This document shows, piece by piece, positions 5,460-45,714 of a DNA stretch of 51,144 nt. The stretch spans positions 5,745-56,888 of the forward strand of contig JBHLOC010000031.1 of assembly GCA_048940925.1 (NCBI GenBank), given 5' to 3'. The notes under the pieces were generated by a model, which did not search any database, was not told the DNA's origin, and saw only the letters and a program-made list of their open reading frames with translations. This DNA comes from Promethearchaeota archaeon. Lineage in GTDB: Archaea > Asgardarchaeota > Lokiarchaeia > Sigyniarchaeales > SOKP01. The position numbers were made by a program, and so were the translations under genes. Each line of letters begins with the position of its first letter. The stretch's first letter is position 1.

Positions 5460-6554
5460 ATGATGAGAAATAATAAAATAGGGATTATAATTGACGACGA
5501 TTTTGCTATTAAAAATATGCCACCTTATCCATATCCCACATTTCTTTCTTATGAGACACCCTTAAGAATAAAATCAGTTATAAGTTATTTAAAAGAAATG
5601 GGAGTTTTTGAGGACGAAAGGATAGTTAAAATTGAGCCTGAAACTGTATCAGAAGAAATAATTCATTTAGCCCATACCAAATATCATATAGACTCTATCA
5701 GAAATCTGTCAAGTAGAGGAAATGGTTTATTAGGGGAAGAAGTTTTTATTACTGAAGATACGTTTGAGCTGGCTAAAAAAGCAATTGGGGGAGCAATCAA
5801 ATCAATAGAATGTGTGATTAATAATGAAGTAAGTCAATCTTTTGCACTTATACGACCTCCAGGTCATCATGCTTTGCGAGAAAAAGCTTCTGGACTTTGC
5901 ATTTTTAATAATATCGCAAATGCTATACTCTATCTACGAGAAAAACTCCAATATAAGAAGAAGATAGCAATAATTGACATTGATACACATTTTGGAGATG
6001 GATTAGTGCAATATTTCTATGAGGATCCTTACGTGTTATACTTTTCTATTCATGAATTTGATTTTGTAGAGGGAGATATAGGATTTATTAATGAAATGGG
6101 AGCAGAAGAAGGCCTTGGTACTAATATTAATTTTCCTATACCTATGAGCACAACAGACCAAGATTTTCTAGAGGTAATAGATATAGTGGCCCCACTTTTG
6201 AAAGAATTTCAACCAGATCTAATTGTGATTGCTGCCGGATTTGATATGTATTTTGATGATCCAATAGGAAATTGCCTATTGACGTCGAACTCATATTATA
6301 AATTTTCTGAAATTATGTTAAGAATTGCTGAAGAGATATGTGAAGGGAAATTAGTTTTTATACTTGAGGGGGGATACAGTTTGATTGGTCTACCTGTTTG
6401 TATTCATTCTGTTTTTAAAGCTTTATTGCACGAGAGTTATAAATCTCCATCCTTTGAAAATCTACAATTCCTAAATCAGTCCAAGATTCATGATATAAGA
6501 AAAATTAAATCTGCACTGAAAAAGCTTTTAATTAATTATTGGAGAATTTTTTAA
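5460..6554 (+). CDS. Zn-dependent histone deacetylase family protein (HDAC/acetylpolyamine amidohydrolase-like)
   Basis: RPPGHHA, GLCIFNN, DIDTHFGDG, AGFD and LEGGY motifs. Confidence 0.93.
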   Translation: MMRNNKIGIIIDDDFAIKNMPPYPYPTFLSYETPLRIKSVISYLKEMGVFEDERIVKIEPETVSEEIIHLAHTKYHIDSIRNLSSRGNGLLGEEVFITEDTFELAKKAIGGAIKSIECVINNEVSQSFALIRPPGHHALREKASGLCIFNNIANAILYLREKLQYKKKIAIIDIDTHFGDGLVQYFYEDPYVLYFSIHEFDFVEGDIGFINEMGAEEGLGTNINFPIPMSTTDQDFLEVIDIVAPLLKEFQPDLIVIAAGFDMYFDDPIGNCLLTSNSYYKFSEIMLRIAEEICEGKLVFILEGGYSLIGLPVCIHSVFKALLHESYKSPSFENLQFLNQSKIHDIRKIKSALKKLLINYWRIF

Positions 6555-30740: not shown

Positions 30741-31280
30741 ATGATAAATGATGATGTTGCAAAAGGCTTTGTTTTCAAAATAACCGTTATAGGGGATGGT
30801 GCTGTTGGTAAAACAAGTTTAATTAAAAAATATACGCAAGGAAGTTTTCAAAAGGATTATATAAAAACTTTAGGAGCTCAATTTTCAAAATATGATGAAG
30901 AAATTGATGGTGATAATTGTAAATTATTCTTTTGGGACATTGCAGGGCAACGCGAATTTGATTTCATGCGACCTACTTTCTATAAAGGAAGTAAAGCAGC
31001 AATTATTGTATTCTCCCATACGGATGATGATAGTTTTAATCATATTGAGAATTGGCATGAAGATATAAAAAAATACACGGGAGAATTACCTATTGTTTTG
31101 TTTGGTAATAAAACAGATTTAGTTAAGAAAGAAGATTTAGATGATGAAAAAGTATTGAATATTGTAAATGAAAGAAATTTCTTGGGGTACTATAAAACAT
31201 CAGCCAAAACGGGATCCGGTGTTTATAAAGCATTTCAAGCGATAATTAAAGAATTATATAATAAATATAAAGAAGCTTAA
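30741..31280 (+). CDS. Rab-like small GTPase
   Basis: GDGAVGKT, TLG, WDIAGQ, NKTD, SAK. Confidence 0.95.
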   Translation: MINDDVAKGFVFKITVIGDGAVGKTSLIKKYTQGSFQKDYIKTLGAQFSKYDEEIDGDNCKLFFWDIAGQREFDFMRPTFYKGSKAAIIVFSHTDDDSFNHIENWHEDIKKYTGELPIVLFGNKTDLVKKEDLDDEKVLNIVNERNFLGYYKTSAKTGSGVYKAFQAIIKELYNKYKEA

Positions 31281-31283
31281 ACA

Positions 31284-31583
31284 ATGTATGATGATATTGA
31301 TCAAGGTTATCCTAAAATCTTGTTTTTTTCATCAAATCATTGCGCACCGTGCAGACCAGTGGAAGAAATGTTAAAGAAAATAAATATTTCACATTTTGGA
31401 AAGAAATTGAGAATACAAAAAATATCTATTGAATTAGAAGAGAATCGCGGATTTATGCAAGAGTATCGAATCACATCAGTCCCAACATTAATAATTGCGG
31501 ATAAAAAATTATCTGTAAATATCCAAGAGGAAGAAATTATAGATGCTATATTGTATGCGTTTATCACTTCTGTTAAAATATAA
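31284..31583 (+). CDS. Thioredoxin/glutaredoxin-like protein (CAPC)
   Basis: ILFFSSNHCAPC and cis-Pro motif SVPTL; starts 3 bp after the GTPase stop. Confidence 0.88.
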   Translation: MYDDIDQGYPKILFFSSNHCAPCRPVEEMLKKINISHFGKKLRIQKISIELEENRGFMQEYRITSVPTLIIADKKLSVNIQEEEIIDAILYAFITSVKI

Positions 31584-31639
31584 TTTTATAAATGTAAAAA
31601 TATGAAATTAATAAAAATAATAAATTAAGTGAAAAGAAA

Positions 31640-32119
31640 ATGGATCGACAATTACTCTCTAAAATTTTAGCTCAAATGAGAAAAAATTTAAAAGAAGGCA
31701 AATCTATTGGTGATATGAAGGTTGGTGCTTTACTTGCTTTAGGGCATCAACTAGAAGCAATATTTTATTATTTAGGACATGAATTAGGGTCAATTTTAAA
31801 GGTAAAAGAACTTAAAGATCCGAATCAAATTCCTTATGAGTTAAAAAAATTAGTCTCAGAATATAAACTTGGTGATGTTGAGATTATTGAAAGTACTGGA
31901 GAAATTGTCCAACTCAAATTAAGAAATCATTCTTCTATTAAGGATTTAATTAATAGAGGTATCAAGACAACAGGTAGTTTTTGCTCTTTTGAAGCTGGGT
32001 TATTAGCGGGAGTAGTAGAAAAGATGTCCGATGTTCACTGTTTTGCACAGGAATTGGAATGTAGCTTACAAACTGGCGAAAATTATTGTAGTTTTATGAT
32101 TGTATTTCAAACAGATTAA
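31640..32119 (+). CDS. V4R (4-vinyl reductase) domain protein, HNOB/Bet3-like fold
   Basis: FYYLGHELG, LG, CSFEAGLLAG, ELEC...G..YCSF (V4R metal-binding Cys/Glu pattern). Confidence 0.88.
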   Translation: MDRQLLSKILAQMRKNLKEGKSIGDMKVGALLALGHQLEAIFYYLGHELGSILKVKELKDPNQIPYELKKLVSEYKLGDVEIIESTGEIVQLKLRNHSSIKDLINRGIKTTGSFCSFEAGLLAGVVEKMSDVHCFAQELECSLQTGENYCSFMIVFQTD

Positions 32120-32280
32120 CTTTCAGAAGGATTAGAGCAGATGATTACTAATAAATTTTTCAATTTAGCTATAATTTTTGGTTAAATTTTTTCTTAAATT
32201 TTATTAGAAACATAAAGTAGAAAATTATTAATAATTATACACTATATTTTGAATATAAAATCCCTTTTTGATGATTAATA

Positions 32281-32808
32281 ATGGATGAAAATAAATGGAT
32301 AATTAAAATCACCCTTTTAGGAGAAAAGAATGTGGGAAAAACTTCACTTGTTTATAGGTATATTGAGAATAAATTTAGAGAAAGTTATAAAGCTACACTT
32401 GGTGTTAACCTTTTAAAGAAAGAGTTGGATGTTGGGGAGTATGGTGGTGTTTCTGCTCAGATTTGGGATCTTGGAGGGCAAGAGTCTTTTAAATCTTTAA
32501 GATCTCTATATCTTGAGGGTGCTAATGGGGCACTTGTAATTTTTGATATGACAGATAAAAACTCTTTTGAAAAACTTGACGAATGGATACAAGATTTTAA
32601 AATTGCAAGGGGAGATGCTCCTATTATCTTAATAGGAAATAAATCCGATTTAAAAAATCAAATAAAAATAACTGAGAAAGAAGCTTCTCAATTCGCTAAA
32701 ACTAACGGAATGGAATTAATTATTACATCAGCTAAAACTGGAGAAAACGTTGAAAATGCCTTTATAAAATTAACAAAGATAATTTTAGATAAAATTCCGA
32801 AGCAGTAA
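32281..32808 (+). CDS. Rab-like small GTPase
   Basis: GEKNVGKT, TLGV, WDLGGQ, NKSD, SAK. Confidence 0.95.
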   Translation: MDENKWIIKITLLGEKNVGKTSLVYRYIENKFRESYKATLGVNLLKKELDVGEYGGVSAQIWDLGGQESFKSLRSLYLEGANGALVIFDMTDKNSFEKLDEWIQDFKIARGDAPIILIGNKSDLKNQIKITEKEASQFAKTNGMELIITSAKTGENVENAFIKLTKIILDKIPKQ

Positions 32809-41136: not shown

Positions 41137-42294
41137 TCAGCAATTTAAATGTTTAACAAAATTTTCAACTCTGTCCATAGCTTCTTCAAGTTTGGACATC
41201 TCCGTAGCATATGATATACGTATCATATGGTCTGAAAAAGATCCAAATATATCTCCGGGTACTATCGCTACAGCTTGTTCTTTCATTACTTTTCGTGAGA
41301 ATTCTGAACCATTCATCTTAAAAAGTTTGATTGAAGGCATAATATAAAAAGATCCGAGTGGTTTTATCACGTCAAAACCCATATCTTTTAATCTAGAATA
41401 GACTAAAATTCTTCTCTTATCAAAACTCTCCCAGATATTTTTGAAAAATTCTCTATTCATTTTTAATGCTTCTATAAAACCATACTGAGCAGCATGATTA
41501 GTTCCTGCTACCGTATACTGATGGTACTTTTCCATTAAATCAATAATTTCTTTAGAAGCTACAGCATACCCTAATCTAAAACCTGTTGCTGAAAATAATT
41601 TTGACATAGCATTTAGTGTTATAGTCCGTTTAAATATGTCATTCAAAGAAGCTGGACTCGTATGTTTAAGTCCATCATATATATAGTTTTCATAAACTTC
41701 ATCTGAGATTAGATATAAATCATTATCTACAACAATATCCACAATTGCTTTTAATTGAGAAAGATTTAACGCATGACCAGTAGGATTGTTTGGAGAATTG
41801 ATTAGAATTGCTTTTGTCTTTTCTGTAATTGATTTTTCAATTCCTTCTATATCTGGACTAAAATCCTTATTTCTTTCTACTTCTACAGTATTTATACCGA
41901 AAAAGGAACTACAGTAAAAATATGATACAAAATTAGGTGATGACAAGATTAACTCATCTCCAGGATTAAAAATGGAAGCAAAAGCTAATGTAATTGCCTG
42001 ACTCCCACCATTAGTAACTATTATATTGTCTTTCCAATCGGTCTCAATTTTGTTATCCTTTCTCATCTTCTTTTCTATTAACTCTAATAATTCTGGAACT
42101 CCTTTCGTGGGAGCGTACATTGTTATATTTTTTTTTAAAGCCTCAATATTACCTTTTATAGCAGGTTCAGGAGTTCTGAAATCTGGTTGACCAATACCGA
42201 GACTAATTACATCTGAGCGTCCTGCGGCAAGATCAAATAATTCTCTAATGGTTGATTTTGGAGCTTTAGCTATTCTATGAGAAGTTTCTTTCAT
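41137..42294 (-). CDS. Class I/II PLP aminotransferase (aspartate aminotransferase-like)
   Basis: IGQPDF, NSPNNPTG, SDEVY, MSKLFSATGFRLG, RISYA. Confidence 0.95.
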   Translation of the reverse strand: MKETSHRIAKAPKSTIRELFDLAAGRSDVISLGIGQPDFRTPEPAIKGNIEALKKNITMYAPTKGVPELLELIEKKMRKDNKIETDWKDNIIVTNGGSQAITLAFASIFNPGDELILSSPNFVSYFYCSSFFGINTVEVERNKDFSPDIEGIEKSITEKTKAILINSPNNPTGHALNLSQLKAIVDIVVDNDLYLISDEVYENYIYDGLKHTSPASLNDIFKRTITLNAMSKLFSATGFRLGYAVASKEIIDLMEKYHQYTVAGTNHAAQYGFIEALKMNREFFKNIWESFDKRRILVYSRLKDMGFDVIKPLGSFYIMPSIKLFKMNGSEFSRKVMKEQAVAIVPGDIFGSFSDHMIRISYATEMSKLEEAMDRVENFVKHLNC

Positions 42295-42383
42295 ATAAAA
42301 TTTTCTCTTATAAATTAATTTAAATTCATTTAATTCTCAATACTATGATACAAAAAAGAGTTTTTTGAGATTATTAAAACTTT

Positions 42384-42938
42384 TTAAAGTTTTACCCCAT
42401 GATTACTTAAGATTTGATTAACTAACAATAAAAATGCTTCTTCAATATTCTCTCCCAATTTGGCGCTAGTTTCTATAAAATTGTTGGCGTTAATCTTCTT
42501 TGCTAGTTCTTGTCCCTTTTCAGTTGGAACTACACGCTCGTCTTTTAAGTCAGTTTTATTTCCAATTAATATATAAACTCCTTCTTTCCTCACATATTTC
42601 TTAAAATCACGCAACCATTTTGAAGTTATACAATCAAATGTATTATAGCGAGTAACATCGTATACAAGAAGCGCACCCTCACATCCTTGGAAGTACATAG
42701 ATCTAATAACACTGTATTTTTCCTGTCCAGCCAGATCCCACATGATCAATCGTACTTTAGCATTTTCTAAATTCACATCTTTACGTACGATATTTGCGCC
42801 AAGGGTAGGTTTATAATCCTCTTGAAAAGTTTCTTCACAGAACATATTAATAAGACTTGTTTTTCCTACTGCTGCTTCTCCAAGAATTGTTATTTTAAAG
42901 ACAAATTCTCTTAATTCCATGGCTTCTTCTGTTGACAT
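42384..42938 (-). CDS. Rab-like small GTPase
   Basis: GEAAVGKT, PTLG, WDLAGQ, NKTD, SAK. Confidence 0.95.
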   Translation of the reverse strand: MSTEEAMELREFVFKITILGEAAVGKTSLINMFCEETFQEDYKPTLGANIVRKDVNLENAKVRLIMWDLAGQEKYSVIRSMYFQGCEGALLVYDVTRYNTFDCITSKWLRDFKKYVRKEGVYILIGNKTDLKDERVVPTEKGQELAKKINANNFIETSAKLGENIEEAFLLLVNQILSNHGVKL

Positions 42939-42991
42939 ACAGTGATTTCTATCCTTAATATATAGTAATACATATATTGTCGTATGTCTAT

Positions 42992-43555
42992 TTAAGGCTT
43001 TTTTTCGACTTTCAATTTTAGAATAAAAGTATTATGATTTGGATCATTTATAGTTTTATTATCTCCAAAATGCGTAACTCTATATTTAGAAGGTAATGTT
43101 TTCTCTAAGGAATGGACTAAGAATCCCTCAAATAAATCACATGGTACACCAATTTCAGAACAAAATATACATTTTTGAACTAAGACTGTTACAATATTCT
43201 TATTTTTCTCAATTATTTTAACTTTCCAATCTGTAACTATTAACCTATTAATGTCATCAACGATTTCTTCAAAATTTTTCCCATATGGATATAAATAAAA
43301 GGAAAATTTTTTCCCAATTTCAAAAAGGAGTCTGGAAGAATCATATAATAAACAATTTTGAGCAGATATAATTTTCTTAAGTGAAAAGAAATCTAACATT
43401 TTATCTTGATCTTGGTCTTTTATGTTCTTTAGGTTGAGCATTTCAGCTTCTTTTAAGATGGATCTCATCCCATCATAATCAAGTATATCATGATACGCTT
43501 GAAGAAGTGCGGTTATAACCTTATATTTTACTTCTCCTTTATAATCTCCAATCAT
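42992..43555 (-). CDS. Divergent V4R/HNOB-fold protein
   Basis: N-terminal 'ILDYDGMRSILKEA' helix, 'LFEIGK', and CIFC...PCDLFEGFL as in V4R proteins; the last V4R cysteines are not evident. Confidence 0.65.
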   Translation of the reverse strand: MIGDYKGEVKYKVITALLQAYHDILDYDGMRSILKEAEMLNLKNIKDQDQDKMLDFFSLKKIISAQNCLLYDSSRLLFEIGKKFSFYLYPYGKNFEEIVDDINRLIVTDWKVKIIEKNKNIVTVLVQKCIFCSEIGVPCDLFEGFLVHSLEKTLPSKYRVTHFGDNKTINDPNHNTFILKLKVEKKP

Positions 43556-43577
43556 ATGTTCTATGCTTTATGTAATT

Positions 43578-44123
43578 TCAAATCTTACTTTTCTTTAATA
43601 CTTGAGATACTAATTTTTTAAAAGCAATTTCTACATTGTTTCCAGATTTTGCACTTGTTTCGATAAAATCACTAGCTTTTATCTCTTCTGCTAAATTTTC
43701 TCCCTTCTCCGAAGGTACTGCATTTGAATCTTTTAAATCAACTTTATTGCCAATTAACATATAAACTCCATCTGGTCTAGCAAAAGTTCTAAAATCCTCA
43801 AGCCATTTTGATTTAATACTTTCAAAAGTGGAATGACGTGTTATATCATATACAAACAAACTACCATGACAACCTTCAAAAAACATCTGTCTAGTTAATT
43901 CATATTTATCTTGTCCAGCGATATCCCAAAGTATTAGGCGAACAAATGCGTTAAATTCTTCAACTTTTATTTCTTTAGTAAGAATGTTAACACCTAAAGT
44001 TGGCTGGTAGTCCTTCTCAAAACTATGTTCTATATAGCGATTGATTAAACTTGTTTTACCTACCGCAGGATCACCTAACACGCAGAGTTTAAAAGCCCAT
44101 ATCCTCTCTTTGTTCTCTGTCAT
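43578..44123 (-). CDS. Rab-like small GTPase
   Basis: GDPAVGKT, PTLG, WDIAGQ, NKVD, SAK. Confidence 0.95.
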   Translation of the reverse strand: MTENKERIWAFKLCVLGDPAVGKTSLINRYIEHSFEKDYQPTLGVNILTKEIKVEEFNAFVRLILWDIAGQDKYELTRQMFFEGCHGSLFVYDITRHSTFESIKSKWLEDFRTFARPDGVYMLIGNKVDLKDSNAVPSEKGENLAEEIKASDFIETSAKSGNNVEIAFKKLVSQVLKKSKI

Positions 44124-44140
44124 ATTATTTCAAAATTTTT

Positions 44141-44569
44141 CTATAATTTTAGTAATGATAAATTAAGGTTAGGATCATTAGCTCGAATTAATTTTTGATC
44201 AATTTCAAATATATATACTTCACCAGTGATAGAAACTATAGTAGGTTGGATCAAATGTCCACCAATTATATTGTAATCTCTTGTTCCTAGAGAAATATGG
44301 AGGTGAACTATTGGTTGGTCATCTATAAAAGAAATGTTTCCCATACATGAAACTAATTCGACATAATCCTCATATATTTTTTGTAGATAGCTTTTAGAGT
44401 TGATATCAAAATACCCTATAGTAAATTTTTTTAAAGCACCAATACTATTAATTAATCCAGACCTTATATTATGTTCTTTTATCATCTGGATTATTGAATC
44501 GATTAAATCCTCATCTGGCTCTACTTTACCTACTATAACTCTACTAATCTTAGTTTCGATGCTCTTCAT
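44141..44569 (-). CDS. PPC domain / DUF296 protein
   Basis: IGAL, ELVSCMGN, HLHISLG, GGHL motifs. Confidence 0.9.
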   Translation of the reverse strand: MKSIETKISRVIVGKVEPDEDLIDSIIQMIKEHNIRSGLINSIGALKKFTIGYFDINSKSYLQKIYEDYVELVSCMGNISFIDDQPIVHLHISLGTRDYNIIGGHLIQPTIVSITGEVYIFEIDQKLIRANDPNLNLSLLKL

Positions 44570-44745
44570 ATTTATTCAAATATGAGAATATTATTATACA
44601 TATCTGATAAAGTCAGTTTTTTTATATTTGAGTTAAAACCATATTTACATATTATTGCTACAAACGAATTTTTGATTCTTAATATAGAAAAATTAATTAT
44701 AGTGTACATTTATACCCTATATTAGTATACTATAAGTGTTATATA

Positions 44746-45714
44746 ATGCCCGAAAAAGTGGAAATATCAGGTATCGAATTACTCTTAGCTGAACCAGCTC
44801 AAGTTGATATGGAATGGGTTGGAAATGATGATTTAATAAATCAATTAAAAGCAGCATGGATGGTTGTTGATAAAGATGATCTTCCATTGAACCCACGTAT
44901 TTTAGGCAAACCTGGAGTTGGAAAGACCACTCTTGGTTATGCTGCTGGAAGAAGATTAGGTAAAGATGTATACATGTTCCAATGCACAATGGATACACGC
45001 CCAGAAGATTTATTAATAAGTCCTGTAATTGCATCTGGTAATAAAATTGCTTATGTTGCTAGCTCTTTAGTATCAGCTATGATCAAGGGCGGAGTTTGCC
45101 TTTTAGATGAAGGAAATAGGATGAGTGAAAAAAGTTGGGCATCTTTAGCACCTTTAATGGATAAAAGACGATATGTGGAGAGTATTATAGCAGGCATTAG
45201 AATTTATGCGCATCCAGAATTTCGGTTATGTGTCACTATGAATGCTGATTCTAGCACATATGAAATTCCAGAATATATTCAGTCTCGTCTACAACCTAAG
45301 ATTTACATAGAATTCCCCAATAAAATAGATGAACTCAAAATTTTAAAGTACAATTTACCTTTTGCATCTAAAGAAATTTTAGAATATTGTGTAGATTTTC
45401 TCCAGAATGCTCATATACATGACGAACCCTACACTGTTAGAGACGGTATTAACATTTTAAGATATTATATAAAATCAAGTTTACTAAACAACGAAGACCA
45501 AGATAAATTGGAAAAGGTTATGTTTGAAAGCTCTGTAATTAAAGTACTAGAAGAAGTAGCAGTAAAGTATTTACCTGGAAATTATGAAGAATTCTTGAAA
45601 AAGGAGAAAGAATCAATCCCATTTAAGATATTTAAAGATTTTGAAGATGTCAACGATTATTATGATAAATTTGTAAAAAAGACTGATAAAGATTCAACTG
45701 ATTTTAACCCATAA
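44746..45714 (+). CDS. MoxR/CbbQ-like AAA+ ATPase
   Basis: GKPGVGKT, QCTMDTRPEDL, LLDEGNR, HPEFRLCVTMN, SRL. Confidence 0.9.
   Translation: MPEKVEISGIELLLAEPAQVDMEWVGNDDLINQLKAAWMVVDKDDLPLNPRILGKPGVGKTTLGYAAGRRLGKDVYMFQCTMDTRPEDLLISPVIASGNKIAYVASSLVSAMIKGGVCLLDEGNRMSEKSWASLAPLMDKRRYVESIIAGIRIYAHPEFRLCVTMNADSSTYEIPEYIQSRLQPKIYIEFPNKIDELKILKYNLPFASKEILEYCVDFLQNAHIHDEPYTVRDGINILRYYIKSSLLNNEDQDKLEKVMFESSVIKVLEEVAVKYLPGNYEEFLKKEKESIPFKIFKDFEDVNDYYDKFVKKTDKDSTDFNP

Follow-up and report, generated by a model that had tools for sequence, protein, structure and literature searches.

A predicted V4R/H-NOX/Bet3-fold protein and its neighboring Rab-like GTPase form a conserved gene pair in Lokiarchaeia

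Introduction

To our knowledge, Asgard archaeal genomes harbor dozens of Rab-, Arf-, and Rag-like GTPases, almost none of which can be matched to a regulator. Here, we analyzed a four-gene array with two Rab-like GTPases in a Promethearchaeota archaeon (GTDB lineage Archaea; Asgardarchaeota; Lokiarchaeia; Sigyniarchaeales; SOKP01). The array is located on contig JBHLOC010000031.1 of assembly GCA_048940925.1, of which positions 5,745 to 56,888 of the forward strand were used; this whole stretch of 51,144 nt is called the window in the following. The array consists of a PPC/DUF296 gene, a GTPase gene (G_up), the gene of a stand-alone protein with a predicted V4R/H-NOX/Bet3 fold (MID), and a second GTPase gene directly downstream of it (G_dn). 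An earlier note on this DNA had described the array as the second instance of a GTPase-V4R-GTPase triplet in the window and had proposed a modular, undescribed signaling family with paired GTPases reminiscent of Rag-type heterodimers or of a cascade. All available loci were used to analyze which of these genes stay together, how the GTPases are related to each other, and what kind of protein MID may be.

Organization of the array

The four genes are encoded on the minus strand and are separated by 17, 22, and 53 bp (Table 1). Open reading frames (ORFs) and Pfam assignments thereby agree with the unit outlined in the earlier note, and the two GTPases, taken there as evident paralogs, share 58% identical residues over 170 positions. 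MID is the core of the conserved dyad described below. The PPC protein scores above the gathering threshold of PF03479 (108.7 bits; cut-off 25), and its relatives in the PDB (3htn, 2dt4 (PH0802), and 2h6l) are structural-genomics proteins of unknown function.

Table 1. Coordinates of the array, its surroundings, and further GTPase-linked genes. Positions without a locus prefix refer to the window.
Feature	Position	Strand	Details
PPC/DUF296	44141-44569	-	142 aa; PF03479 (PCC/PPC) E 2.7e-31; first gene of the array
G_up, Rab-like GTPase	43578-44123	-	181 aa; PF00071 Ras E 3.7e-48
MID, stand-alone protein with predicted V4R/H-NOX/Bet3 fold	42992-43555	-	187 aa
G_dn, Rab-like GTPase	42384-42938	-	184 aa; PF00071 Ras E 1.2e-51
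Class I/II aminotransferase	41137-42294	-	PF00155 E 1.4e-59; family-conserved downstream neighbor
T6 run	42352-42357	-	27 nt past the G_dn stop codon; read directly from the sequence
AT-rich divergent intergenic region	44570-44745	.	176 bp between the PPC and MoxR-like genes; sequence read
MoxR-like AAA+ ATPase	44746-45714	+	AAA_5 E 1.6e-15; divergent from the array
Cassette 1	30741-32808	+	Ras-like 30741-31280; thioredoxin-like 31284-31583; weak V4R/DUF2507 31640-32119; Ras-like 32281-32808
GNAT gene between MID and the downstream GTPase	L078:3434-3994	+	PF00583 E 4e-15
C66 pair	L071:1234-2965	+	Arf-like GTPase, 338 aa; after 121 bp V4R-like protein, 197 aa
C68 genes	L072:1049-2683	+	Ras-like GTPase, 173 aa; PIN-domain protein, 145 aa (PIN_9 E 1.2e-12); Ras-like GTPase, 171 aa
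Further GTPase near a distant pair	L034:5124-6080
Further GTPase near a distant pair	L041:2363-3301
Further GTPase near a distant pair	L042:5014-5970

Conservation of MID and its downstream GTPase

A search for MID in 400 genomes of the phylum found it in 134 genomes, and it is single-copy in 119 of the 134 genomes of the window's family. Six further families of this order and class have homologs with 23-38% identity, and the MID query matched none of the other Asgard families in this set. Gene neighbors were classified in 96 loci comprising genome loci, wider fetched regions, and 33 metagenome loci (Table 2). In 80 of the 81 assessable loci, a GTPase gene on the same strand follows MID directly, with a median gap of about 100 bp or less; in the only exception, the distant locus L032, the GTPase ORF overlaps the MID ORF call at a place where some bases are withheld. 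Because MID followed by a GTPase recurs in this way in many genomes, the arrangement is not due to chance. The MID homologs of families f2-f7, with about 30% identity, keep the GTPase although every other neighbor differs.

Table 2. Genes next to MID in the classified loci (loci with the gene/assessable loci).
Gene	This genus	Other genera of the family	Distant families	Metagenome
GTPase directly downstream of MID	31/31	18/18	11/12	20/20
GTPase directly upstream of MID	27/31	5/20	1/13	20/24 (biased)
PPC gene	28/29	16/20	0/13	22/22
Aminotransferase downstream of G_dn	4/4	17/17	0/10	15/15

Retrieval of the metagenome loci with a GTPase+MID query inflates their value for the upstream GTPase. In all 36 loci of the family that could be assessed, the aminotransferase gene is located downstream of G_dn, versus 0 of 10 distant loci. 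The PPC gene is a later accessory confined to the window's family; neither genus g12 nor any of the 13 distant loci has it. Many relatives carry a third GTPase gene upstream of PPC, and the usual layout in the window's genus is a divergent MoxR-like gene followed by G-PPC-G-MID-G-aminotransferase. On account of these counts and of the GTPase tree described below, the triplet has to be rejected as the conserved unit. What is kept across the class is the dyad of MID and the following G_dn, so the conservation that the earlier note had expected of the triplet applies to two of its three genes.

Phylogeny and duplication of the GTPases

G_up and G_dn possess intact G1-G5 motifs (GEAAVGKT/GDPAVGKT, PTLG, WDLAGQ/WDIAGQ, NKTD/NKVD, and TSAK), and 29 of 32 downstream orthologs passed a motif screen for G1, G3, G4, and G5. 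The best 60 PDB sequence matches of G_dn are all Rab/Ypt proteins, including the Thorarchaeota Rab 7ezb. Both proteins are bare G domains with no extra domain and no C-terminal roadblock domain, scoring 164-175 bits with the Ras profile versus 22-23 bits with Gtr1_RagA. Neither of them has a cysteine for prenylation (C-termini ...NHGVKL and ...KKSKI), and the last six residues are free of cysteine in 47 of 48 MID-linked GTPases.

A maximum likelihood (ML) tree was calculated for 92 small GTPases, comprising MID-adjacent proteins, best matches in distant genomes that are not adjacent to MID, and a background of 30 GTPases from the window's genome; it is the result of a quick search with support from the Shimodaira-Hasegawa-like approximate likelihood ratio test (SH-aLRT) only. 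A single clade (SH-aLRT 93) comprises the MID-adjacent GTPases of the order, and all 30 sampled background GTPases are placed outside of it. The background gene C63:51031-51561 falls beside the class-level GTPase group, in which the downstream partner GTPases of the class cluster together (SH-aLRT 91). Among the 20-69 matches that G_dn has in each of five distant genomes, the GTPase next to MID ranks 1st, 1st, 1st, 2nd, and 3rd. According to the tree, the GTPases linked to MID constitute a Rab-like subfamily of their own.

In family f1, the copies directly upstream of MID and those upstream of PPC belong to one duplication clade (SH-aLRT 97), which has longer branches than the very conserved G_dn copies and includes some copies with eroded motifs. 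In G134, a genome of a different family, the two GTPases flanking MID are mutual sisters (SH-aLRT 99), and therefore the triplet of this genome arose independently. The upstream GTPases are tandem duplicates that have arisen at least twice independently, with an intact copy in the window. From the tree clades together with the match ranks, it follows that the dyad was inherited as a unit and that the sandwich results from recurrent tandem duplication of the partner GTPase.

Fold and conserved residues of MID

The MID protein itself has no match to any Pfam family at E ≤ 0.1 and does not reach the gathering score of PF02830 (V4R). A homolog search gave 392 matches, the best 120 of which share 64-100% identity and a length of about 187 aa; the relatives with a named source among these best 120 are Loki-type Asgard metagenome-assembled genomes (MAGs). 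Existing labels are 'predicted hydrocarbon binding protein' for some members (Joint Genome Institute, JGI) and '4-vinyl reductase' for one (UniRef).

An AlphaFold2 (AF2) model of MID from an alignment of 31 sequences reached a predicted local distance difference test score (pLDDT) of 93 and a predicted template modeling score (pTM) of 0.89. When it was compared with known structures by Foldseek, H-NOX domains were the best matches (E 4e-6, TM 0.55-0.60), followed by YslB/DUF2507 and TRAPPC3. The family profile matches the V4R protein MJ1460 (2osd; E 1.6e-3) and the Thorarchaeota TRAPPC3 7yh3 (E 9.5e-3), and 7 of the 31 aligned family members, all of them distant, match PF02830 directly (best E 4.2e-17). 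Judged by its model, MID has the V4R/H-NOX/Bet3 fold: it displays the two-layer alpha/beta architecture of the V4R proteins MJ1460, PoxR, and MopR, and it likewise agrees with the H-NOX and Bet3 folds. The V4R fold assigned earlier to the middle protein was thus recovered by AF2 and Foldseek as well as by the PF02830 matches of distant members. By way of its family members and profile, MID is homologous at the sequence level to bona fide V4R proteins. The Bet3 family PF04051 is matched neither by MID nor by any of the 31 family members.

Residues C129, C132, C139, and H174 as well as C68 do not vary in any of the 120 close members (the best 120 of 392), and the first four constitute a putative metal site, probably for Zn. 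Distant clades have C132, C139, C165, and C177, the classic four-cysteine arrangement of V4R proteins, and one clade is devoid of all these cysteines. Irrespective of these shifts at the metal site, a further set of residues (D28, G29, S32, G81, K83, P90, G92, and G144) is invariant throughout the class and represents the most promising candidate for a conserved functional surface of MID. The possibility that MID is a heme sensor of the H-NOX type was rejected, as the family lacks an invariant histidine. Helix 95-105 is free of histidine, H174 is found in family f1 only, and the literal Y71-x-S-x-R75 is unconserved and located in the wrong subdomain.

Predicted GTPase-MID fusion proteins

Two public predicted proteins, P0121 (372 aa) and P0122 (384 aa), combine an N-terminal Rab-like GTPase with a C-terminal MID with 61-66% identity to MID of the window. 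In P0122, the linker resembles a translated intergenic spacer, and the initiator methionine of MID is replaced by leucine. The fold of P0122 was predicted with a block alignment in which (truncated) GTPase rows covered the N-terminal half and MID rows the C-terminal half. The model has a pLDDT of 89 and a pTM of 0.89, with residues 184-191 being disordered. Since a pTM of this size was obtained with two equal-sized domains despite the disordered linker, the placement of the domains relative to each other is confident in this model.

Neighboring genes and other GTPase-linked loci

The spacer between G_dn and the aminotransferase gene comprises 89 bp and carries the T6 run. Archaeal transcription terminates at oligo-T tracts, and this run possibly represents the terminator closing the GTPase unit; the aminotransferase gene is probably a separate transcription unit. 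At the other end of the array, the AT-rich region between the PPC and MoxR-like genes likely contains its promoter. A scan for sigma-70 promoters and terminators gave 26 sites versus 23 expected and is uninformative, as a bacterial model was applied to archaeal DNA. The MoxR-like gene is located beside the array in many loci of the window's family, with 69-95% identity in related loci.

Locus L078 carries an extra gene, for a GNAT acetyltransferase, that separates MID from its downstream GTPase. In L004, L005, L010, L092, L101, and L102, the MID-GTPase gap measures 820-1102 bp, similar in size to the L078 insert, and is unannotated. Rfam gave no match in the loci with an insert at this position. 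Near the distant MID-GTPase pairs of L034, L041, and L042, a further GTPase of 312-318 aa is encoded. Those of L034 and L041 have an unannotated N-terminal region of about 150 aa fused to the Ras domain, and that of L042 was identified through BLAST similarity only.

Of about 5,900 ORFs called in the window's genome (4.8 Mb), 77 are Ras-like, which gives any one gene a chance of a few per cent to lie next to a GTPase gene. V4R-detectable genes are only three in number, namely MID, the middle gene of cassette 1, and one on contig C66, and all three (3/3) adjoin a GTPase gene. The middle protein of cassette 1 has no detectable BLASTP similarity to MID (E 0.23), which confirms the strong difference noted before, and the two GTPases of this cassette (own_C8_36485 and own_C8_38025) are placed outside the MID-linked GTPase clade. 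The C66 V4R-like protein matches PF02830 with E 3.6e-6, below the gathering score, and about 160 N-terminal aa of its Arf-like neighbor are without Pfam match. Weak matches of the MID profile on contigs C13 and C63 of the same genome are neither located near a GTPase nor recognized by V4R in Pfam. Contig C68 carries another GTPase sandwich with a different filling on one strand, a PIN-domain gene between two Ras-like GTPase genes.

The proposal of a modular, undescribed family can thus be divided: the linkage of V4R-like and GTPase genes recurs in this and in other genomes, and literature searches on V4R/TRAPP and GTPase gene neighborhoods in Asgard archaea returned no description of a MID-GTPase linkage, so that the pair is apparently unpublished. 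The triplet with paired GTPases as its unit is the part that had to be given up.

Discussion

We consider it moderately probable that MID and G_dn represent a two-gene module, in which MID, a protein with a sensor fold, would bind its dedicated Rab-like GTPase and couple a sensed state to the GTPase cycle. The two proteins are co-inherited and would most likely bind directly; the two predicted fusions and the AF2 model are the evidence that points to such binding. MID could control or read the nucleotide state of the GTPase according to a signal at its cavity or at its Cys/His site, and a small hydrophobic ligand, a metal, or the redox state are conceivable signals. Its role might be that of a guanine nucleotide exchange factor (GEF), a GTPase-activating protein (GAP), a factor similar to a guanine nucleotide dissociation inhibitor (GDI), or an effector. 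The duplicated partner GTPases, namely G_up and the copy that precedes PPC in many relatives, would then serve as extra clients of the same MID. The logic may be compared to stand-alone H-NOX sensors regulating an adjacently encoded signaling protein, and to MglB regulating MglA. The narrower claim that MID is a direct, signal-gated regulator of the GTPase, acting as exchange factor or GAP, is a tentative one and rather unlikely by our own estimate.

Several observations weigh against a module of this kind. The fusions are two among about 400 family members, no single-ORF GTPase-MID fusion is present in the 33 related metagenome loci, and both may be artefacts of sequencing or gene calling. 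Moreover, the fused GTPase is located upstream of MID, i.e., in the position of G_up, and the universal partner is the downstream one. In some loci (probably about seven), a GNAT acetyltransferase gene separates MID from G_dn, and therefore tight translational coupling is not needed. Furthermore, a search with the family profile detected no MID ortholog in G147 and G149, two genomes of the sister genus g2 of the same family that are both 100% complete, nor in a 4.4-Mb single-contig genome from another family of the order, and the same was the case for G135, G137, and G132 of family f3. The weak V4R-like matches in the two g2 genomes and in the 4.4-Mb genome are not located beside GTPases. This pattern indicates patchy loss of the MID module.

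The assumption that MID and the GTPase are merely co-regulated neighbors without contact, MID being a small-molecule- or metal-binding protein or a carrier whose gene lies under one promoter or in one genomic island together with the GTPase and aminotransferase genes, appears improbable to us. It would fit the conclusion, drawn from structures by Tran et al. (PMC10933270), that TRAPPC3/V4R proteins of Asgard archaea likely bind ligands, and also the synteny of the aminotransferase gene within the family and the tolerated GNAT insertion. However, the adjacency of MID and GTPase outlasts the loss of the aminotransferase, PPC, and MoxR neighbors across families, the partner GTPase belongs to a dedicated subfamily, and fusions are predicted for which a confident model was obtained. 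In addition, the two other V4R-like genes of the genome are paired with GTPases of different subfamilies.

Rag GTPases heterodimerize through a C-terminal roadblock domain. Following the Rag-type or cascade logic suggested by the earlier note, the two GTPases could be a Rag-like obligate heterodimer or a two-step cascade organized by the V4R protein, with GTPase-V4R-GTPase as the module, and two intact paralogous GTPases indeed flank MID in the window as in 27 of the 31 loci of the genus; an independent flanking pair occurs in G134, and cassette 1 has the same outline. Nevertheless, the upstream GTPase is missing in 15 of 20 loci of the family's other genera and in 12 of 13 distant loci, and at times it precedes PPC instead. 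The copies arose by recent duplication, the motifs of some of them are eroded, and the proteins are bare G domains whose Gtr1_RagA scores are dwarfed by those for Ras. A Rag-like heterodimer was therefore rejected in view of the absent roadblock domain and the variable upstream copy, with the closest solved relatives being Rabs, and we regard this type of organization, including the cascade, as very unlikely. A different scenario would see MID as a homolog of Bet3/TRAPPC3 and as a homodimeric exchange factor of the adjacent Rab-like GTPase, i.e., a forerunner of TRAPP-Rab1/Ypt1. The eukaryotic TRAPP core (Bet3/TRAPPC3 with Rab1/Ypt1) likewise associates a Bet3-related fold with a Rab-like GTPase. 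Against this, MID has no Pfam match to Bet3, and its structural score to TRAPPC3 is lower than that to H-NOX or V4R proteins; we give this scenario little credence.

The binding module that we favor can be compared with several known systems. Thorarchaeota TRAPPC3 was solved (PDB 7YH2 and 7YH3) and TRAPPC3/V4R-like proteins of MK-D1 were modeled by Tran et al. in 2024, who also described that the Zn-ligand positions drift among Asgard TRAPPC3/V4R proteins and that the GTPase genes of MK-D1 are generally not in operons with roadblock (RB), longin, or TRAPPC3 genes (PMC10933270). Like these proteins, MID is stand-alone, belongs to the same fold superfamily, and has a cysteine-based, though putative, Zn site with drifting ligands. 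Its sequence similarity to Asgard TRAPPC3 is marginal, however; it is almost always encoded beside a GTPase, and its putative site is of the Cys3-His rather than the Cys4 type. Archaeal and bacterial V4R proteins (PF02830/COG1719 'predicted hydrocarbon binding protein'; MJ1460 with 2OSD/2OSO and the sensor domains of PoxR and MopR) are homologous to MID by profile and have a CxxC...C cluster in common with it, whereas MID falls below every Pfam threshold, is not fused to an AAA+ or helix-turn-helix (HTH) output, and is linked to a Rab-like GTPase.

With regard to gene neighborhoods, Liu et al. reported an Asgard operon of 'LAMTOR1-like Roadblock + Rab-like GTPase + DENN' and found most eukaryote-like genes outside of conserved neighborhoods; V4R and TRAPP are never mentioned in their article (bioRxiv 10.1101/2020.10.19.343400). 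In this operon as well as in MglA/MglB, a small GTPase of the Ras superfamily is encoded beside a small, non-enzymatic presumed regulator and the arrangement is conserved across lineages, as for MID and G_dn. By analogy, MID/G_dn may be viewed as another small GTPase encoded next to a small regulator or sensor. The fold of MID, known here from sequence and model, is that of V4R/H-NOX/Bet3 and not Roadblock/LC7, longin, or DENN, and no longin gene was found in the array or the syntenic loci, the regions to which this look was confined. Stand-alone H-NOX sensors are encoded beside their signaling partner, a histidine kinase or a diguanylate cyclase. In contrast to them, MID is devoid of a heme-ligating histidine, and its partner is a GTPase.

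The MID-G_dn pair, present class-wide, provides a concrete and cloneable GTPase together with a candidate partner for testing. The recurrent duplication of GTPase genes around one sensor-fold gene shows how GTPase families of Asgard archaea expand. As the fold predicted for MID is the one from which the Bet3 subunits of TRAPP are thought to derive, the pair also bears on the origin of Rab regulation. If MID should turn out to be a direct regulator, it would be the first prokaryotic Bet3-type fold acting alone on a Rab-like switch, and this would suggest that the TRAPP-Rab relationship arose from an Asgard archaeal V4R-GTPase pair that sensed a ligand or the redox state.

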